Source of the DNA: an uncultured Woeseiaceae bacterium
Lineage (GTDB): Bacteria; Acidobacteriota; Vicinamibacteria; Vicinamibacterales; UBA823
Assembly (NCBI GenBank): GCA_964569695.1
Contig: CAZMUA010000005.1
Location: 18,904-82,903, forward strand
Reading direction: 5' to 3'
Length of the DNA: 64,000 bases
A program made the translations under genes and the position numbers. Below, piece by piece: positions 25,342 to 62,682 of the stretch (positions are counted from its first letter, which is position 1; each line of letters starts with the position of its first letter). A model generated the notes under the pieces. The model was not told the origin of the DNA. It worked only from the letters and a program-made list of their open reading frames with translations, and made no database searches.

Positions 25342-25575
25342 AACAAATGGTATTTTTTAAATGCTATCGTCGAAAAATCTTAAAAATCACTCAAAAATTT
25401 AACATATTCAGAGGTCAAGTGGAAGCATAGCTTCTTAGAAGGCAAAAATAAAGCGAAAATAATCTTCTTTTCCAGTATTACCCACTGCTTTACATTCTTT
25501 CCCTGTTTATCGACGCTCTAACCTCTACAACTTTAGTACTTTTTAGTTCAATAGGAATTTGAGCAGAGTTACTTC

Positions 25576-27294
25576 TCAATCCTGTCGAATGAAGATTGAG
25601 TGCTCATTCGCAAGGTCATTGGCTGCTGGTGTCACTATGGTTTTTGCGTTAATGCTGATTTTCTGTCCTTCCTTGACCGCTAAGCGGACGTCTTGTTCGC
25701 AGACAAATGGTACGGGGGTCAGTTCGATTCCAGCGGGTGAGGGGTTTTGAACCGTCTGAGGATTTGTGGGTTTCAAGGATTGATGGTCTTCCCTGACAAG
25801 AGGACCGTATCCTCTCGTGGCAAGAAATTGATCGATACGGTTGCTCAGTTTCAAACTACCTCCTGCCTGTGCAACTGGGATCGGTTGAATTCGAGAATCT
25901 TCAACGATTGGCGTGGTAGTGATCTTTGCATGTGCAGAAGTGGTTTCATAAGCCAAGCGTTTAATATTCAGTAAATGAATTGGAGAAATGTTGTCAGAAG
26001 TGATATTACCACCGTAGCCACCACATCCTAAGGTCATGGCCGGATCAAGTCCCGTGCTAAGGCCGGTCGAACCGTGTGTCGTCGGTGTATTGACGACAAT
26101 TCTGAAGGCAGGTTTCTTGAGACCGAACTGCAGGATAATTTCGTCGTTTTGTGAGTGAATTGACATCGTGTGGCCCATGCCACCGTAGGCTAGAATTTGG
26201 TTGCATCGTTCACACGCCTCTCTCCAGTCTCGAACGACATAGAAGGAAAGGACTGGGCATAGTTTCTCAATTGAGAGCGGATAGTCTCGGCCGACGCCCT
26301 CAAGAGGAGCAATCAGTATTCGAGTCCCATCAGGCACGTCGATGTTGGCAGCCTTTGCTATCTGAGTCGCCGATTTTCCGACAAGGTTTGGATTTGGAAG
26401 GCGCTGGGTGGAAATCAAGGTGCTACTTAAGGCACTTATTTGGCTGGGTGTTAAAAAATAACCACCTTGTGATTTAAATTCTTCTTTCACTGTATTTGCA
26501 ATACTGTGGTCGGTCACCACTGAATTTTCTGCTGAACAGAGCACTCCATTGTCGAATGTTTTACCTAGTGTGATATCTCGGACGGCCTTCGGAATGTCCG
26601 CTGAGCTTTCAATGTAGGCGGGGGCGTTACCTGGACCAACGCCGTAAGCAGGTTTGCCCGCGCTGTAGGCAGCACGCACGAGCCCCATCCCTCCAGTCGC
26701 GAGGATGACAGCGACGTCTCGATGCTTCATTAATTCTTGTGTGCCTTCGATTGTCACAGTTCGCATGACATTAATGGCATCGTCCGGAGCACCCGCGTCA
26801 TGAGCCGCTTTTGCCATGTGTTCAGCTATGTCGGTGATGCAGTGGACCGCTGCCGGATGTGGACTTAACACGACAGCGCAACGGGCTTTCATTGCGATCA
26901 GAAGTTTATAGATTGTTGTGGACGTTGGATTCGTAGAGGGAATGACTGCTGCCACAACACCAAAGGGCTCAGCGATTTCAATGACTTTTTGCTTTTCGAG
27001 TCGCCGAATCACACCGACGGTTCGGAGTGGCCGAATAAAACTATGTATCCGGACTGCCGCGAAAAGATTTTTTTGCAGTTTGTCAGCTACCACCCCGTAA
27101 CCAGTTTCATCGACAGCAGCCTTTGCCGAATCTTCTGCGTGATGCGCAGCTGTTGAAGCCATAGCGTCAACTATGGTATCGATCCGTTCCTGAGACAGCT
27201 CAGCGAGTTTTATCTGTGCCTGCTTAGCACGATGTGCCAACACTCGAGCCTCTTGGATCGAGGTTAGATCGCGATCTTTTGTCGCCTCCGCCAT
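25576..27294 (-). CDS. CoA-acylating aldehyde dehydrogenase (EutE/PduP/AdhE-N family) with an approximately 115-aa C-terminal extension
   Basis: 572 aa with 'IPSTNPTST', 'VGPGNAPAYI' and the catalytic 'FDNGVLCSAENS'. The ALDH fold ends near residue 455 and a long tail follows. Confidence 0.85.
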   Translation of the reverse strand: MAEATKDRDLTSIQEARVLAHRAKQAQIKLAELSQERIDTIVDAMASTAAHHAEDSAKAAVDETGYGVVADKLQKNLFAAVRIHSFIRPLRTVGVIRRLEKQKVIEIAEPFGVVAAVIPSTNPTSTTIYKLLIAMKARCAVVLSPHPAAVHCITDIAEHMAKAAHDAGAPDDAINVMRTVTIEGTQELMKHRDVAVILATGGMGLVRAAYSAGKPAYGVGPGNAPAYIESSADIPKAVRDITLGKTFDNGVLCSAENSVVTDHSIANTVKEEFKSQGGYFLTPSQISALSSTLISTQRLPNPNLVGKSATQIAKAANIDVPDGTRILIAPLEGVGRDYPLSIEKLCPVLSFYVVRDWREACERCNQILAYGGMGHTMSIHSQNDEIILQFGLKKPAFRIVVNTPTTHGSTGLSTGLDPAMTLGCGGYGGNITSDNISPIHLLNIKRLAYETTSAHAKITTTPIVEDSRIQPIPVAQAGGSLKLSNRIDQFLATRGYGPLVREDHQSLKPTNPQTVQNPSPAGIELTPVPFVCEQDVRLAVKEGQKISINAKTIVTPAANDLANEHSIFIRQD

Positions 27295-27380
27295 CGATCG
27301 TCCTTAGGCTCAAACAAACGTCTGGGTTATCGTTACTCGGCGCGTTATCCCCAGTTGCTGATATTAGTTACTATCAGCGG

Positions 27381-27665
27381 CTATTTTGTCGGGGACTTAG
27401 GTAGATATTTTTCAACTTCGTTGTGTGGGCGAGGAATGACGTGCACCGAAACAAGTTCGCCAACTCGTCTTGCTGCTGCTGCTCCGGCATCCGTCGCGGC
27501 TTTAACGGCTCCGACATCGCCGCGCACCATGACGGTCACATATCCAGCACCAATGTACTCTTTGCCGATCAAGATGACATTCGCTGCCTTGACCATGGCG
27601 TCAGCGGCTTCGATCGATCCCACAAGTCCTTTGGTTTCGATTAAGCCGAGCGCTTCCATTGGCAT
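27381..27665 (-). CDS. bacterial microcompartment shell protein, BMC-H (Pfam00936, PduA/EutM-like)
   Basis: 94 aa counted from the Met at 27665, which follows SD AGGAGG. Sequence '[61 protein letters not shown]...'. The longest ORF (to 27773) adds an implausible leader. Confidence 0.92.
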
Positions 27666-27845
27666 TGCCGTCCTCCTATAGGAAATAAGTGTGTTTAGAA
27701 TGCTTCTAGCCGCAATGTGATGCGAATGTAGCACATCGCCTGCCATACGACAACTACCAAGGGTCTGAAACACAGTAGTTTTGAGGGCTTTTAACGCTTT
27801 GAATTCTGTGTAAATTTAAGGTTCTTCGGTTGTGACGTGCGTTCG

Positions 27846-29588
27846 TCAGAGGCTTCGCTTACTCCAACCTTGCTTGGATAGATTTCTGTTAATTATGACG
27901 GCTGCAATAGTCGCTACAATAGCATACGGTGTTGCCGCGATGACCGAGGTAAGGAGAATCGTGCCCACGCCGAAAAGTGTCGCGTAAACGAGTATCCATC
28001 CCGCTATCCAGTTAATTAGCATTGGTGTAATCGGCTCGGGTGCAGGAAGATGTGCCGCGTCAGTTATGTGCCGCCAGCCTGGTCCATTAGGCTGTACCCG
28101 TCTATAGAATGCTGTTAGATGGGATAAAGGTTCTGGTTGCGTCAGATACGTGACCAACAGCCAGCACGCTGTGGTCCAGGTGACCAAGTAAAACAAGCTG
28201 TTCGGAAAGACAATATTTGTAAATAGTTTTAAGTATGCGAAACCGATTGCCGGTGCTACCATCGCGGCAACTTCTGACCAGGCGTTTACCCGCCACCAAT
28301 ACCACCGGAGAATCAGCACTAAACCAATTCCGGCGCCAGACTCTAGAATAAATTCCCAGGCCTGGCGAATGCTTTCAAGATAGAAGGTCACTATGCCTCC
28401 CAGTATCATCAATAACAGGGTGGTGAGCCTCGATGCTCGAACGTAATGCGCCTCTGAAGCATTGGATTTGATGAATCGCCGATAGAAATCATTGATCACG
28501 TAGGAGCAACCCCAATTGAGTTGAGTGCCGATCGTTGACATATAGGCCGCAAAGAAACCAGCAAGTATCAAGCCGCGCCACCCAGGAGGCACGTGATCAC
28601 GAATCACCATTACGTACCCAGCTTCGCGGTCAATGATGTCCGGATACAGCACGAGTGATGCCAGTCCTACAAGAATCCACGGCCACGGACGTAGGCAGTA
28701 GTGGGCGACTGTAAACCAAAGTGTGGCGATGAGGGAGTGGCGTTCGTTTTGCGTTGACATCATGCGCTGCGCAACGTAGCCACCACCGCCAGGTTCTGAA
28801 CCTGGATACCAACTTGCCCACCATTGAACACCAAGGAAAGCAATGAAAGATGCTAGCGGTAAGGCGATAGTCTGTGCAGCGTCTACGCCATTTGTTCCGA
28901 TCGTAGGAAGGAATCTAAATGTAGATTCTGGAAGAGCTGCTTGGAGACCATCGATTCCACCCACCTCTGGCAATCGCAAGGCGAACCAGGCAAGGGCAAT
29001 TGTGCATAGCATTGCCAATGTAAATTGGATGAAGTCTGTAACAACGACTCCCCATAGTCCTGACAGAGAAGTGTAGATGCCGGTGAATGCTAAACTCACA
29101 AGCACGGCAGTCAGTCGGTCCCATCCGAGCGTGACTAGAAGGATTTTCGCCATAGCGAGATTAACCCAGCCCATGATGAGAAAGTTGACTGGTAGTCCTA
29201 GGTACAATGCTCGAAAGCCTCTAAGAAAAGCTGCTGCTCGACCCGTATAACGAAGTTCTGCGAATTCAACATCTGTAACGATGCCGGCGCGTCGCCATAG
29301 TCTTGCGAAAAAGAAAACGGCAAGGGTGCTGCCTAATGCTGCGTTCCACCATATCCAATTACCAGCAATTCCATCTCGAGCCACAATTCCTGAGACAGCC
29401 AATGGAGTATCTGCAGCAAACGTTGTAGCCACCATGGAAGTTCCTGCGAGCCACCACGGTAACGATCGACCTGAAAGAAAGAACTGCCCGACATCAGTGC
29501 TGGCACGCCGATAGTAGGCGAATCCGACGGCCAGTATCACAAAGAAATACAGAGTAATAATGAGCCAGTCGAGGTTTGTAAGTGCCAT
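27846..29588 (-). CDS. sodium:solute symporter (SSS) family transporter
   Basis: 580 aa with about 14 TM segments and an SSS-like layout. Substrate unknown. Confidence 0.8.
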   Translation of the reverse strand: MALTNLDWLIITLYFFVILAVGFAYYRRASTDVGQFFLSGRSLPWWLAGTSMVATTFAADTPLAVSGIVARDGIAGNWIWWNAALGSTLAVFFFARLWRRAGIVTDVEFAELRYTGRAAAFLRGFRALYLGLPVNFLIMGWVNLAMAKILLVTLGWDRLTAVLVSLAFTGIYTSLSGLWGVVVTDFIQFTLAMLCTIALAWFALRLPEVGGIDGLQAALPESTFRFLPTIGTNGVDAAQTIALPLASFIAFLGVQWWASWYPGSEPGGGGYVAQRMMSTQNERHSLIATLWFTVAHYCLRPWPWILVGLASLVLYPDIIDREAGYVMVIRDHVPPGWRGLILAGFFAAYMSTIGTQLNWGCSYVINDFYRRFIKSNASEAHYVRASRLTTLLLMILGGIVTFYLESIRQAWEFILESGAGIGLVLILRWYWWRVNAWSEVAAMVAPAIGFAYLKLFTNIVFPNSLFYLVTWTTACWLLVTYLTQPEPLSHLTAFYRRVQPNGPGWRHITDAAHLPAPEPITPMLINWIAGWILVYATLFGVGTILLTSVIAATPYAIVATIAAVIINRNLSKQGWSKRSL

Positions 29589-29598
29589 GGTTTCTTGA

Positions 29599-30660
29599 TC
29601 AATCCGTTAGCGAAGCCTCAATTACGGCGTCATGCAACAGGGGTCGTATCGTTTGGATGGCTGTGTGATCGTTGTTCGTGGTCGGGTAAAGGCGATTCGC
29701 GAGTAGGACGATGTAAAGATCAATTGAAGGATCGATCCAGAGCGATGTACCGGTAAATCCGGTGTGGCCAATAGAGGAGGGAGACATTCGGGTTCCGCAG
29801 GACGAGGTCGGAAGCATCCTATCCCAGCCGAGGGCGCGCGAACTGTTTGGCGCCCCACTCCGGGTAGTGAATGCCCGAACCGTTTCGGTTCGCCCAAACA
29901 CTGTTTCAGATTCATATCCTTGAAGCATGAGGCGGGCGAATTTGCCTACAGCCGTTGCAGAACCGAACAATCCAGAATGTCCTGCAGCACTGCCTAGCGC
30001 CCAAGCGTTGTCATCGTGAACTTCTGCATGTAGAAGTCGATTTCTCCACTGGCTGAATCCGCTTGGAGCGATCCGACTTCGCCAAGTGTCTGGTGGATCG
30101 TAACGTAGGTCGTTAAGGTTTGCCCGTTTGGTGAAGGCCTTAAATTGATCTGCGAGGCTTTGGCCTCCGACATCTTCAATAAGAAAGCCGAGAAGCATAA
30201 AACCCAAATCGCTGTAGATGGACTGCGACCGAGGAACGTATTCGAGTGGCAAATCGCAAATGGCTTCCTCAAATTCCTGTCGTCCTGTACAGGTGTGGTA
30301 GAGAGGTTGGTGGGCTGATAATCCACTTGAATGATCCATCAGGTCACTGATCGTAACGGTGTTTCGATCGTTGTTAGTCCACCTGGGTAGTCGTAACGAA
30401 ACTGGTTCATTTGTATGGATCTTGCTGGCTTCTTGGAGGCCCATAAGGAGGGTCGTGGTGGCTAAGACCTTTGTTAAAGAAGCCAAATCAAAAATTGTTT
30501 CTGAATCGGTTGTCGGAGTATCTGTGTCATAGGTCGAATGACCGAATGCTTCGTGCCAGAGAATCGTTTCAGCAGTTCCCACTTCAATTACTGCAGCTGG
30601 AAATGCTTTCATACGTACGCCGTCGTTCAAGATGGACCGTGCTCGGTCGAATCTATTCAT
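29599..30660 (-). CDS. serine hydrolase of the beta-lactamase/PBP (class C-like) family
   Basis: 353 aa with SxxK 'DLASLTKV', 'IYSDLGF' and '[15 protein letters not shown]'. No signal peptide is evident. Its start overlaps the upstream SSS gene by 4 nt. Confidence 0.82.
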
Positions 30661-32198
30661 ACAGAATTTTCACCTGATAGGTTTCGTCGGTCGTAATTGC
30701 CTAGCATTAGGCCTGACATCCATCCAATTATGAGCGTGGTAATCGACCCTATCAAAACGTACCACTGCCAGGAAATCGCTGTGAAGCTCCACACCGCAAT
30801 CATGATGGAAACGCCAGAGGAAATTCCTAGAGCAGCGGCTCTTTGACCAACTTGGGTGAAAGTCCCAAGAAAAAATATGCCAAGAATGATGCCATTCGTG
30901 AATGACGCGACTCCAAGTACTTCGTCAATGATGCGGCTAGACAACTGAATGGCTAGCAAAGCGACACTGACCTGAGCGGAAGCCCAGAAAACGGTGGTCC
31001 AGCGCGAGACACGGAGATAGTGGCTCGCATCACGGAGATGTTTTGTGAATGGAATGTAGAAGTCTCCTAGTGTTGCAGCAGATGAAGAGTTAAGCGACGA
31101 AGACAATGTTGACATTGCTGCTGCGAAAATTGCGGCTACGACCAGTCCGACGACTCCGTTTGGTAAATGGGTCACAATAAAGTACGGGAAGATACGGTCA
31201 GTCTGCACTTCTCCGTTGACGGTAAAAGCTGTTACATCATGCGGGGCGTAGGTTAAATAGTAATACCAGAGCATTACACCAATTAGTAAGAACAGCACAA
31301 ATTGACTCGCAATCAATAGTCCACTTCCAAGAAGAGCTGTTCTAGCCTGCTTTGAGTTTTTGCAACAAAGGTACCTTTGCACGATTAGTTGATCGGTTCC
31401 ATGTGTAGCCATGGTCAAGAAGGCACCGCCGATTAATCCGGACCAGAACGTATAATCTTGAGTTGCAGTTACAGTAAAGTCGAAAAGTTGAAATTTACCC
31501 GCGGCTGACGCAGCTGTAGATATTTCAGTCCAGCCTCCTGGAAATTGGTTTAAGAGAATTGTCGCTGCGAGCCCAGCACCCGCGAGATAGAGTCCTAGCT
31601 GAACGACGTCGGTCCATATAACAGCGGACATTCCTCCTAGAACCGTGTAGATCACCGTGATACTTCCGATTATCAGGATCGACAAAATCAAAAGACTCAC
31701 ATTTGGTTCAAGTGTTGGTAGCCAAGAATGCAGTGTCGTTACGACGCCAGGTGTTACCAAAAATAGGGTGGTCAAAACCAAGCCCGTTGCAAATAATCTA
31801 AGGCCGTCCGCAACGGTTCTGGTCAGTAGAAACAGTAAAGAGGTAAACCTTCTGACGCTGTCACCAAATCGATTTCCAAGTATCTCGTAGACGCTGACTA
31901 GATCTCCGCGGAAGTAGGCTGGTATAAATATCACCGTAACAGCAATGCGACCCACTAAGTAACCAAAGACTAGTTGAAGAAATGAAAAATTTCCTGAGTA
32001 AGCAAGGCCAGGCACACTAATAACGCTTACAGTGCTCGTCTCAGTAGCGACAATTGAACCCATGACGGCCCACCAGGGTATGTTTTTCCCAGTTGTAAAG
32101 TAGTCGCGAACGTTCCTTTGTGATCGGGAAAAATACGCACCGAACAATAAAACACAAAGTAGGTAGACGGTGAGAACTACAAAGTCTAATACGCGCAT
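30657..32198 (-). CDS. sodium:solute symporter (SSS) family transporter
   Basis: 513 aa with about 13 TM segments and an SSS-like layout. Substrate unknown. Confidence 0.8.
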
Positions 32199-61300: not shown

Positions 61301-62682
61301 TGGGAATGCCGCTCGAGATCTTAAATCCCTACGACCAATCACTTGTCTGCCGCGTTCAAAATGACGACGGCGAGAGACTTGAGAAGAAGATTGCGGGTGC
61401 CCACGCAGCGTTCCAACATTGGCGCCAGGTGCCGATTGGTGAGCGAATTGTCCAAGTCCAAGCCGGACTTAAACGCTTTCAGCAAAACTCTGCAGTAATT
61501 GCTCGAGATGTAACACGACAAATGGGCAAGCCGATTGTGCAAGCTCAGCGTGAAGTTGACACGGCGGTTGAGCGTGCTGAACACATGATATCGATCGCTG
61601 AAGAGAGCCTCACGCCAGATATTTTGCCGGAGTTAGATGGCTTTGAACGCCGCATCGAACACGTTCCACATGGCGTGATTTTAAATGTTGCGGCTTGGAA
61701 TTACCCACTGCTTATTCCGATTAATGTAGTGGTTCCAGCTCTACTTGCAGGCAATACGGTGTTATTGAAACATTCAGCCAAAACGCCACTTTCAGGTCAA
61801 GCCTTTGCTGAAGCATTTGGAGACTTGGAAGTGGCAGGTCTCGTCACAAATCTTGTTTTGAGTCACGAAACAACAGCCGCTGTTATCTTAGATCCCCGTG
61901 TGGCTCATGTCTCATTCACTGGGTCCGTGACAGGAGGGTCCGCAGTCTATCAGCAGGCTGCAAAGCGGTTTATTGATGTAGGACTTGAGCTTGGAGGCAA
62001 GGACCCTGCCTACGTTGCCGAAGATGCCGACGTGAAGTTTGCTGTGGCTAATACTGTCGACGGTGCATGTTACAACGCTGGCCAATCCTGTTGCGCCGTA
62101 GAACGGGTATATGTCCATCGGAACCACCTTGATGAGTACCTTGACCGTGCCCAACAGGTCATTGAGGCGTATAGGACGGGTGACCCGTTAGATGAAGCCA
62201 CAACCTTGGGTCCCTTGGTGAACCGGATGGCTTTGGAAGAAGTTGAAAGGCAAGTGGGTGACGCAATTGACCGTGGCGCACGCCTGTTGACAGGAGGCCG
62301 TCGAGTGCCAGGACATCGTGGAAATGTGTTTCCAGGCACTCTCATCTCTAATGTGCCGAATGAAGCTTCAGTGATGCAAGACGAGAGTTTTGGACCGATT
62401 GTGCCGGTACGGGGAGTTGAGAATGACGAAGAAGCACTCCGATGTATGAGTGAGACTCGCTTTGGATTGACGGCTTCGGTTTGGACGACCGATCGCAATC
62501 GTGCTGAGCGATTCGCCAGGTTGCTAGATAGCGGTACTATTTTTCAGAACCGATGCGACTATTTGGATCCAGCGCTGGCTTGGACCGGATATGGGGATTC
62601 CGGAAAGGGATCAACGATGTCTCGGTACGGGTTCTATCAGCTTACTCGTCGTAAGAGTATTCACTTTAAAACTAAGACATAG
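61297..62682 (+). CDS. NAD(P)-dependent aldehyde dehydrogenase (non-acylating ALDH superfamily)
   Basis: 461 aa with 'FTGSVTGG', 'LELGGKDP', the catalytic 'GQSCCAVERV' and 'DESFGPIVPV'. Its start overlaps the SDR stop by 4 nt. Confidence 0.88.
   Translation: MMGMPLEILNPYDQSLVCRVQNDDGERLEKKIAGAHAAFQHWRQVPIGERIVQVQAGLKRFQQNSAVIARDVTRQMGKPIVQAQREVDTAVERAEHMISIAEESLTPDILPELDGFERRIEHVPHGVILNVAAWNYPLLIPINVVVPALLAGNTVLLKHSAKTPLSGQAFAEAFGDLEVAGLVTNLVLSHETTAAVILDPRVAHVSFTGSVTGGSAVYQQAAKRFIDVGLELGGKDPAYVAEDADVKFAVANTVDGACYNAGQSCCAVERVYVHRNHLDEYLDRAQQVIEAYRTGDPLDEATTLGPLVNRMALEEVERQVGDAIDRGARLLTGGRRVPGHRGNVFPGTLISNVPNEASVMQDESFGPIVPVRGVENDEEALRCMSETRFGLTASVWTTDRNRAERFARLLDSGTIFQNRCDYLDPALAWTGYGDSGKGSTMSRYGFYQLTRRKSIHFKTKT

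Follow-up and report, generated by a model that had tools for sequence, protein, structure and literature searches.

The ACI microcompartment is exclusive to Acidobacteria and has been described from 125 loci (Sutter et al. 2021, Nat Commun 12:3809). The same survey reported that type I aldehyde dehydrogenases bear their encapsulation peptide (EP) C-terminally, and it catalogued a satellite dehydrogenase of the ACI system in which an EP near the C-terminus is followed by a small domain of ~50 amino acids (Sutter et al. 2021, Supplementary Data 2). A gene for a BMC-H shell protein was sometimes found with an aldehyde dehydrogenase gene, and the small domain was left unassigned. Here we analyse a stretch of metagenomic DNA of 64 kb (contig CAZMUA010000005.1, positions 18,904 to 82,903; hereafter the window) that encodes such a pair on its minus strand at 25576-27665: a BMC-H shell protein and an aldehyde dehydrogenase whose catalytic core is followed by a tail of 117 residues. 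This gene pair is best explained as an ACI satellite locus. The layout of the tail has been known since 2021 and is not a new discovery; because Sutter et al. recorded it for the same enzyme family, its observation in the window is a rediscovery. No later paper on ACI was found in the literature searched.

Proteins that join cargo to shell have been studied in other microcompartments. The N-terminal 99 residues of EutQ from Salmonella are necessary and sufficient for targeting (PMC12487888). Within this region, shell association maps to the helices H1/H2 (residues 9-41), at the EutM/EutL interface, and the EPs of EutC and EutE are bound by H3/H4 (62-99). Deletion of residues 9-41 leaves EutQ colocalised with the cargo but not with the shell, deletion of residues 62-99 leaves it with shells, and in nuclear magnetic resonance (NMR) experiments the addition of an EP was without effect on residues 2-62 (PMC12487888). 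In the Pdu organelle PduM is needed for the association of shell and cargo, and has been placed between the N-terminal helix of PduB and the cargo (PMC9132943). For the family TIGR02536, a Listeria protein was paired with the shell trimer EutL in a large-scale complex prediction (PMC13181095).

What we add is a link, drawn from sequence comparison, between the small domain catalogued at the end of the ACI satellite dehydrogenase and a terminal segment of EutQ, EutT, PduM and TIGR02536. None of the papers searched was found to state this link.

Relatives of the terminal module

The small domain of 43-46 residues at the end of the tail (hereafter the module; Table 1) is covered by no Pfam family, and a search of Pfam with the window's tail returned none at E up to 1. 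Against NCBIfam the window's tail gave a weak match to TIGR02536 ('ethanolamine utilization protein'; E 0.0017) over positions 164-204 of 207. We then scanned 58 diverse module sequences singly against NCBIfam and Pfam. TIGR02536 was matched by 50 of the 58 (best E 4.7e-7; profile positions 164-205 of 207), EutQ (PRK15457) by 13 (best E 0.012; positions 5-43 of 233) and EutT (PRK15020) by seven (best E 0.0017; positions 3-45 of 267), and PduM was matched by five sequences through TIGR04493 (best E 0.0032; positions 117-151 of 153) and by four through PRK15428 (best E 0.0074). Five of the seven NCBIfam families matched by the module are microcompartment proteins. In Pfam, eight of the 58 matched PDU_like, the PduM family, and seven matched E3_binding weakly. 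The matches to TIGR02536, EutQ, EutT and PduM are full-length, in register and always at a protein terminus, and they have in common, over ~40 residues, the pattern [DE]-[VIL]-R-x-A ... hydrophobic-hydrophobic-T-P-x-A-R-[DE].

A hidden Markov model (HMM) of the module was compared with the 15 proteins of the Escherichia coli K-12 eut operon. It found EutQ (residues 8-39, 14.6 bits) and EutT (residues 3-41, 12.2 bits), and each of the other 13 Eut proteins scored <1 bit. Alignment with hhalign gave a probability of 90.7% against EutQ 5-43 and of 93.6% against EutT 3-43. The corresponding scores were 30.5 and 33.7, compared with 9-11 for reversed sequences and with maxima of 18.8 and 20.6 among 100 shuffles each. 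The part of EutQ to which the module aligns is H1/H2, the shell-binding region mapped by experiment. As judged from these profiles, the module is a remote but real homologue of the C-terminus of TIGR02536, the N-terminus of EutQ, the N-terminus of EutT and the C-terminus of PduM. A first-pass annotation of the window, made from its sequence without database searches, had been unable to assign the module to a named domain, and had allowed that it might match a well-known domain unrelated to microcompartments. The module can be assigned by homology to these four families, though not to one in Pfam, and the profiles that it matches consistently are all of microcompartment proteins.

Other carriers of the module were sought in two ways. 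A phmmer search with the last 66 residues against 1.84 billion representatives yielded 463 matches, and among the best 150 there was no clear stand-alone or otherwise fused carrier; of these 150, one was a low-complexity protein of 3237 amino acids, and the others were tails of dehydrogenases, whole or fragmentary, or short pieces with the module at their end. Within 10 kb on either side of 81 loci, no second carrier was detected by the module HMM in six-frame open reading frames (ORFs), bar a broken copy in one locus (L026:7525-7721), from the metagenome-assembled genome (MAG) Acidobacteriota SOY_29_metabat_494. This copy, ~2 kb downstream of the dehydrogenase, is divided between two reading frames, with HMM E 2e-6 for its first half, and resembles a duplicate in decay or what is left of another tail. 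A homologue search with residues 1-60 of E. coli EutQ recovered only near-identical enterobacterial fragments.

Conservation and predicted structure of the tail

All 120 listed homologues of the dehydrogenase (558-596 amino acids, query coverage 98-100%) contain the four-part tail of linker, helix, linker and module. Tail statistics were drawn from 56 full-length homologues. Mean pairwise identity among them is 0.79 in the catalytic core, 0.18 in linker 1, 0.58 in the helix, 0.12 in linker 2 and 0.62 in the module. The terminal block is free of gaps (FVCE-x-DVR-x-A-x3-G-x-K-I ... T-I-[VI]-T-P-[AS]-A-R-D-L ... F), and 12 positions of the module are invariant (F530, V531, E533, D535, V536, R537, A539, I553, T555, P556, A558 and F568). 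In distant orthologues the conservation of the module exceeds that of the catalytic core: the two regions are 64% and 47% identical, respectively, in one such protein (L074) and 72% and 52% in another (L009). The tail is conserved and structured, and is not a product of chance or drift.

An AlphaFold2 model of the tail alone, built on an alignment of 31 sequences, folds the module as strand-helix-strand-strand-helix-strand with a predicted local distance difference test (pLDDT) of 91-96, and a model of the full-length protein repeats the module at pLDDT 93-96. Both linkers are predicted to be disordered (pLDDT 54-58 for linker 1 and 52-62 for linker 2 in the tail model). Because it is predicted at pLDDT 91-96 in two models, carries 12 invariant positions and is better conserved than the core in distant orthologues, the modelled module is, in our assessment, a real domain. 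A module profile searched against the sequences of the PDB found nothing significant; its matches, at E 0.5-1, were to designed TIM barrels and to a subunit-binding domain. The module occurs in none of the nearest solved structures of the dehydrogenase (5j78, 3k9d and AdhE).

The encapsulation-peptide-like helix

The helix between the two linkers was termed an EP by Sutter et al. (2021). It carries a conserved hydrophobic stripe, L483/I487/F490/L491 (i, i+4, i+7, i+8). D488 and L491 are invariant, and L483, R486, F490, R494 and G495 each occur in 90% of sequences or more. The helix predicted by AlphaFold2 spans residues 480-493, with a pLDDT of ~79 in the tail-only model and ~56 in the full-length model. 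The hydrophobic moment is 0.45 against a shuffle mean of 0.29, and it is significant in just eight of the 56 sequences; the case for amphipathicity, which the first-pass annotation had made from residue spacing, therefore rests on the stripe and not on the moment, with the predicted helix in its favour. The near-invariant polar residues R486, D488, R494 and G495 suggest, as a pattern of conservation, that the helix has a specific partner. It does not lie at the extreme terminus, since 76 residues come after it, and the linker between it and the enzyme is poorly conserved (identity 0.18, compared with 0.79 in the core).

The number of helices varies across the dehydrogenase tails, and the module is constant. 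In one subfamily (P0202, P0215, P0152, P0160, P0171 and P0192) two EP-like helices precede the module (e.g. '...VERYLAQRGI...' and '...VVDRFLSSKR...').

Gene, coordinates and catalytic core

The features of the gene pair are collected in Table 1.

Table 1. Coordinates of the BMC-H gene and of the parts of the dehydrogenase gene in the window.
Feature	Position	Strand	Remarks
BMC-H shell protein gene	27381..27665	-	94 amino acids; basal type (KAAN and PRPH motifs); same strand as the dehydrogenase gene, 86 nt upstream of it
Whole gene, acylating aldehyde dehydrogenase with C-terminal tail	25576..27294	-	From the ORF list; 572 amino acids plus stop
Catalytic core, residues 1-455	25930..27294	-	Type I, EutH_ACDH/AdhE-like CoA-acylating aldehyde dehydrogenase by TIGR02518, PF00171 and 5j78/3k9d
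Linker 1, residues 456-479	25858..25929	-	Thr/Pro/Ala-rich, hypervariable; variable length
EP-like helix, residues 480-496, SLKLSNRIDQFLATRGY	25807..25857	-	Family motif L-x2-R-[IV]-D-x-F-L-x2-R-G-[YF]
Linker 2, residues 497-526	25717..25806	-	Pro/Gln/Thr-rich, hypervariable; large length variation
Terminal module, residues 527-572, PVPFVCEQDVRLAVKEGQKISINAKTIVTPAANDLANEHSIFIRQD	25579..25716	-	Delimited by conservation, pLDDT and profile matches

TIGR02518 (EutH_ACDH) matches residues 7-451 of the dehydrogenase with E 2.4e-176. The score of 587 bits falls below the equivalog cut-off of this family (620 bits), as expected for a sister clade of EutH. The AdhE profile spans residues 4-450 and the SauS profile 18-452, the curated profiles ending at 450-452, and Pfam PF00171 matches the core as well. 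Among relatives in the PDB, 5j78 aligns over residues 1-453 and 3k9d over 5-449 (E ~1e-134); alignments to solved relatives end at 449-454, except for the AdhE chain 7dag, which reaches residue 497. On these matches the protein is a type I enzyme that acylates coenzyme A (CoA), and it would turn the aldehyde intermediate of the organelle into acyl-CoA. A protein identical to it is found on 15 public metagenome contigs (up to 382 kb).

Homology of the dehydrogenase to solved and curated relatives ends at residue ~453. This agrees with the first-pass description of an aldehyde dehydrogenase fold that ends near residue 455 and is followed by a four-part tail, and the tail, whose absence or divergence in orthologues would have spoken against the interpretation offered there, is present and conserved in them. 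The boundaries given at that stage are also largely correct. Position 25932, where the tail was said to start, is the first base of codon 455, and the limits of the module, 25707 and 25579, are the first base of F530 and the last base of D572, with the stop codon at 25576-25578. The helix had been placed at 25807-25863; its start stands, and its true end is 25857, two codons less. Two short ORFs on the plus strand overlap the tail (25559-25750 and 25747-25974) and were rejected as genes because the minus-strand frame is strongly conserved.

Gene neighbourhood and taxonomic distribution

The BMC-H protein matches Pfam PF00936 (E 2.6e-28) and the EutM profile PRK15474 (E 2.1e-38), and is 71% identical to E. 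coli EutM. Its start at 27665 is taken from public gene calls. The mechanical ORF extends 36 codons further upstream (27666-27773, minus strand) to a GTG at 27773, and public calls for the product differ (92, 94 or 121 amino acids); the conserved BMC domain begins at the Met at 27665. Within the 64-kb window there is no shell gene besides this one, and no EutN-like gene.

Genomes were scanned, one per species, with module patterns taken from 10 closer sequences, and 80 related loci were fetched. At least 600 stretches match the patterns, and at least 544, from acidobacterial genome contigs, were confirmed. Nearly all of the 80 loci are from Acidobacteriota, mostly Vicinamibacterales, with others from Blastocatellia, Terriglobia and Bryobacteraceae; the orthologues that are 65-74% identical to the dehydrogenase belong to this phylum too, within and outside Vicinamibacterales. 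Among soil Acidobacteria the ACI microcompartment is widespread. In 71 of the 80 loci the gene directly upstream of the module-ending dehydrogenase is one for BMC-H, and a gene for an EutN-like pentamer (BMC-P) was found within 10 kb in none of them. The 'lone BMC-H' that the first-pass annotation had noted beside the dehydrogenase is the known satellite-locus arrangement of the ACI microcompartment.

An M23 peptidase and SecA are encoded downstream in ~35 loci, which is housekeeping synteny. Directly upstream of the BMC-H gene in the window, two sodium:solute symporter genes surround a gene of the beta-lactamase family (27846-32198, minus strand); none of the 80 related loci shows such a group, so these genes probably lie outside the organelle system. 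The neighbouring genes gave no clue to the substrate, and a scan for promoters and terminators gave nothing informative. A second, unrelated aldehyde dehydrogenase-like gene is found at 61603-62604 (plus strand), with no shell gene adjacent to it; over 345 residues its product is 25% identical to E. coli EutE.

Two further observations concern the distribution of the cassette. Two of the loci, L065 and L072, belong to one genome (Vicinamibacterales isolate 129384ec..., contigs 8 and 12), which has two cassettes of BMC-H and module-bearing dehydrogenase. Module-bearing dehydrogenases also occur in bins labelled as non-acidobacterial, namely P0123 (MGH6878896.1, a 'Rhizomicrobium sp.' MAG) and L024, L034, L037 and L054 (Heliobacteriaceae/Heliomicrobium MAGs). 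These labels could be due to mis-binning, to mislabelling or to horizontal transfer of the cassette.

A possible role in shell docking

On balance, we favour the view that the dehydrogenase is a cargo enzyme with both an EP-like helix and an EutQ-like shell anchor, the binding of the module to the shell being proposed by analogy. This view starts from observations on the architecture of the tail, its conservation, its predicted fold, its gene linkage and its sequence relationships. Docking on the shell is a reasonable proposal because the stretch of EutQ that matches the module is the experimentally defined shell-binding region, EutQ being the only one of the four relatives with a segment so mapped. 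The tail would present two conserved binding elements on disordered linkers. The module would dock on the inner face of the shell, as in EutQ. Its most plausible partner there would be the product of the neighbouring BMC-H gene, which resembles EutM (71% identity), itself one of the shell partners of EutQ; the EP-like helix would engage other cargo or the shell in the way usual for EPs. The dehydrogenase would then be both cargo and, the enzyme being oligomeric, a multivalent linker of shell and cargo, a job done in the Eut and Pdu organelles by separate proteins (EutQ and PduM). The first-pass annotation had likewise considered cargo targeting or shell docking, and docking related to microcompartments is, by homology to EutQ, the best reading of the tail. 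It had in addition suggested that the layout could be a different solution, with a module that it could not assign; the layout was recorded by Sutter et al. (2021), with BMC-H sometimes alongside, and the arrangement is neither new nor unassignable.

Several points weigh against shell docking. The main ACI locus, which comprises a class II aldolase with a C-terminal EP, a hydroxyacid dehydrogenase and a BMC-P triplet, would lie outside the 64-kb window. The homology is remote, at 12-22 bits per sequence over ~40 residues that follow a simple pattern. A Foldseek comparison of the tail model with the PDB gave a best E of 0.34, to generic strand-helix-strand units (e.g. in Rpb5 and IF2), and with no significant match there is no solved structure of the module for comparison; nor did the PDB searches find one of the related segments of EutQ, EutT, PduM or TIGR02536. 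The full-length model has no confident contact of the tail with anything, and its residues 396-481 are poorly resolved. Finally, without the PduB N-terminus PduM colocalises with cargo rather than with shell (PMC9132943), so the module may in some systems bind a helical peptide rather than the surface of a hexamer.

The last point leads to an alternative in which the module, instead of anchoring the enzyme to the shell, receives helical peptides or acts as a 'sticker' for self-association. Its ligand would be the EP-like helix on a second dehydrogenase, or the EP at the C-terminus of the ACI aldolase, and two stickers on the flexible linkers of an oligomer would condense a cargo core. Recruitment of the shell would fall to the helix or to other proteins. 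Such a scheme would suit the sticker-linker-sticker layout with its hypervariable disordered linkers, the two EP-like helices that precede the module in P0202, P0215, P0152 and P0160, the association of PduM, which has a related module, with cargo and with the helical PduB N-terminus and not with shell assemblies, and the specific partner suggested by the near-invariant helix residues R486, D488, R494 and G495. However, the EP-binding site of EutQ is H3/H4 (63-99) and not the module-like H1/H2, with no NMR shift in residues 2-62, and contact between helix and module appears in neither AlphaFold2 model. We consider this alternative rather unlikely, if the best of those that compete with shell docking.

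The weak matches to E3_binding (PF02817; seven of the 58 module sequences, best E 0.015), together with the PDB profile search, which picks 3rnm_E over 'TIvTPaArDLgeehev' at E ~1, raise the idea of a domain like the peripheral subunit-binding domain of 2-oxoacid dehydrogenase E2 cores. The module would then recruit a partner enzyme for the channelling of substrate or cofactor, and the ACI hydroxyacid dehydrogenase, aldolase or phosphotransacylase would be the candidates. These matches are not significant and cover one helix of ~19 residues, and the window's own sequence does not match PF02817. The peripheral subunit-binding domain is moreover all-helical, whereas the predicted fold of the module has strands, and the proteins that match the module at full length and in register are microcompartment proteins rather than E2 proteins, which makes this explanation highly improbable. 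Even less probable is that the module takes no part in organelle assembly and regulates the enzyme itself, be it the activity, the cofactor binding or the state of oligomerisation. Core residues 396-455 are poorly modelled and could in principle contact the tail, and in AdhE-like enzymes the C-terminal region of the core takes part in oligomer contacts. Yet ~70 residues of disordered, hypervariable linker carry the module, the full-length model does not dock it onto the core, all its relatives are accessory segments of microcompartment proteins with unrelated enzymatic folds (a cupin, an adenosyltransferase and PduM), and the gene is nearly always linked to a shell gene.

Returning to shell docking, the similarities described here hint at one common small domain for linking shell and cargo in very different microcompartments. 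We tentatively propose that the module is a member of an unrecognised family of portable 'shell-anchor' domains, found on unrelated proteins in at least three kinds of microcompartment, while regarding this broader claim as somewhat likelier to fail than to hold. Its carriers might include, with similar reserve, the cupin kinase EutQ, the adenosyltransferase EutT, the linker PduM, TIGR02536 and the ACI cargo aldehyde dehydrogenase. If true, the fusion of module and EP to the dehydrogenase in ACI would remove the need for a separate linker protein, and would explain how cargo is attached in an organelle for which no separate linker of the EutQ or PduM type is found near the dehydrogenase. If not, the protein is an ordinary member of an already catalogued enzyme family.

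Looking forward, the link to EutQ and its relatives makes a direct test worthwhile, namely of the binding of the tail or the module to the co-encoded BMC-H. Should the proposal hold, a folded tag of ~45 residues could be a general and engineerable shell-targeting signal distinct from EPs, and would provide a second type of targeting tag for engineered compartments.

Comparison with known systems

In summary, the dehydrogenase of the window resembles the ACI satellite aldehyde dehydrogenase in being a type I acylating enzyme with an EP-like helix and a small domain at its end, encoded beside BMC-H and away from the BMC-P triplet and the aldolase, and with orthologues in Acidobacteria. Structurally nothing sets it apart. 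The window copy stems from metagenome contigs of marine or host-associated origin, and Tara sequences are part of the cluster closest to it.

The helix of the tail resembles canonical EPs, such as the N-termini of PduP, PduD, EutC and EutE and the C-terminal EP of type I aldehyde dehydrogenases, in being a short helix with a hydrophobic stripe beside a poorly conserved linker. It differs from them in its internal position and in its several near-invariant polar positions, and in being followed by a second linker and a folded domain.

Among the relatives of the module, TIGR02536 gives the strongest profile match, over its last 40 positions and at a terminus, and is a predicted binder of EutL; the rest of this ~207-residue protein is unrelated to the dehydrogenase tail. 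We take TIGR02536 to come from Firmicutes eut (EUT2) loci, and we know of no member in Proteobacteria. If it is confined to Firmicutes in this way, it may correspond there to the linker region of EutQ. The module also matches the C-terminus of PduM (TIGR04493 117-151 of 153) and the N-terminus of EutT (3-45 of 267; hhalign 93.6%). These matches are weaker (E about 0.0017-0.1), and the apparent partners of PduM are the N-terminal helix of PduB and the cargo, not shell assemblies; no study of what the EutT segment does was found.

A further comparison is with H1/H2 of EutQ (Sci Adv 2025, PMC12487888). The two segments share D-[IV]-R-x-A ... [IV]-[IV]-T-P-x-A-R-[DE] over 37 columns (hhalign 90.7%), and both are terminal, lie beside a flexible linker and belong to a microcompartment protein. 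Their identity is ~24%, and the EutQ paper describes helices only, whereas the prediction for the module adds short strands. In EutQ the segment is N-terminal and is followed by the EP-binding helix pair and a cupin acetate kinase; in the dehydrogenase it is C-terminal, on a cargo enzyme, and comes after an EP-like helix rather than an EP receptor.

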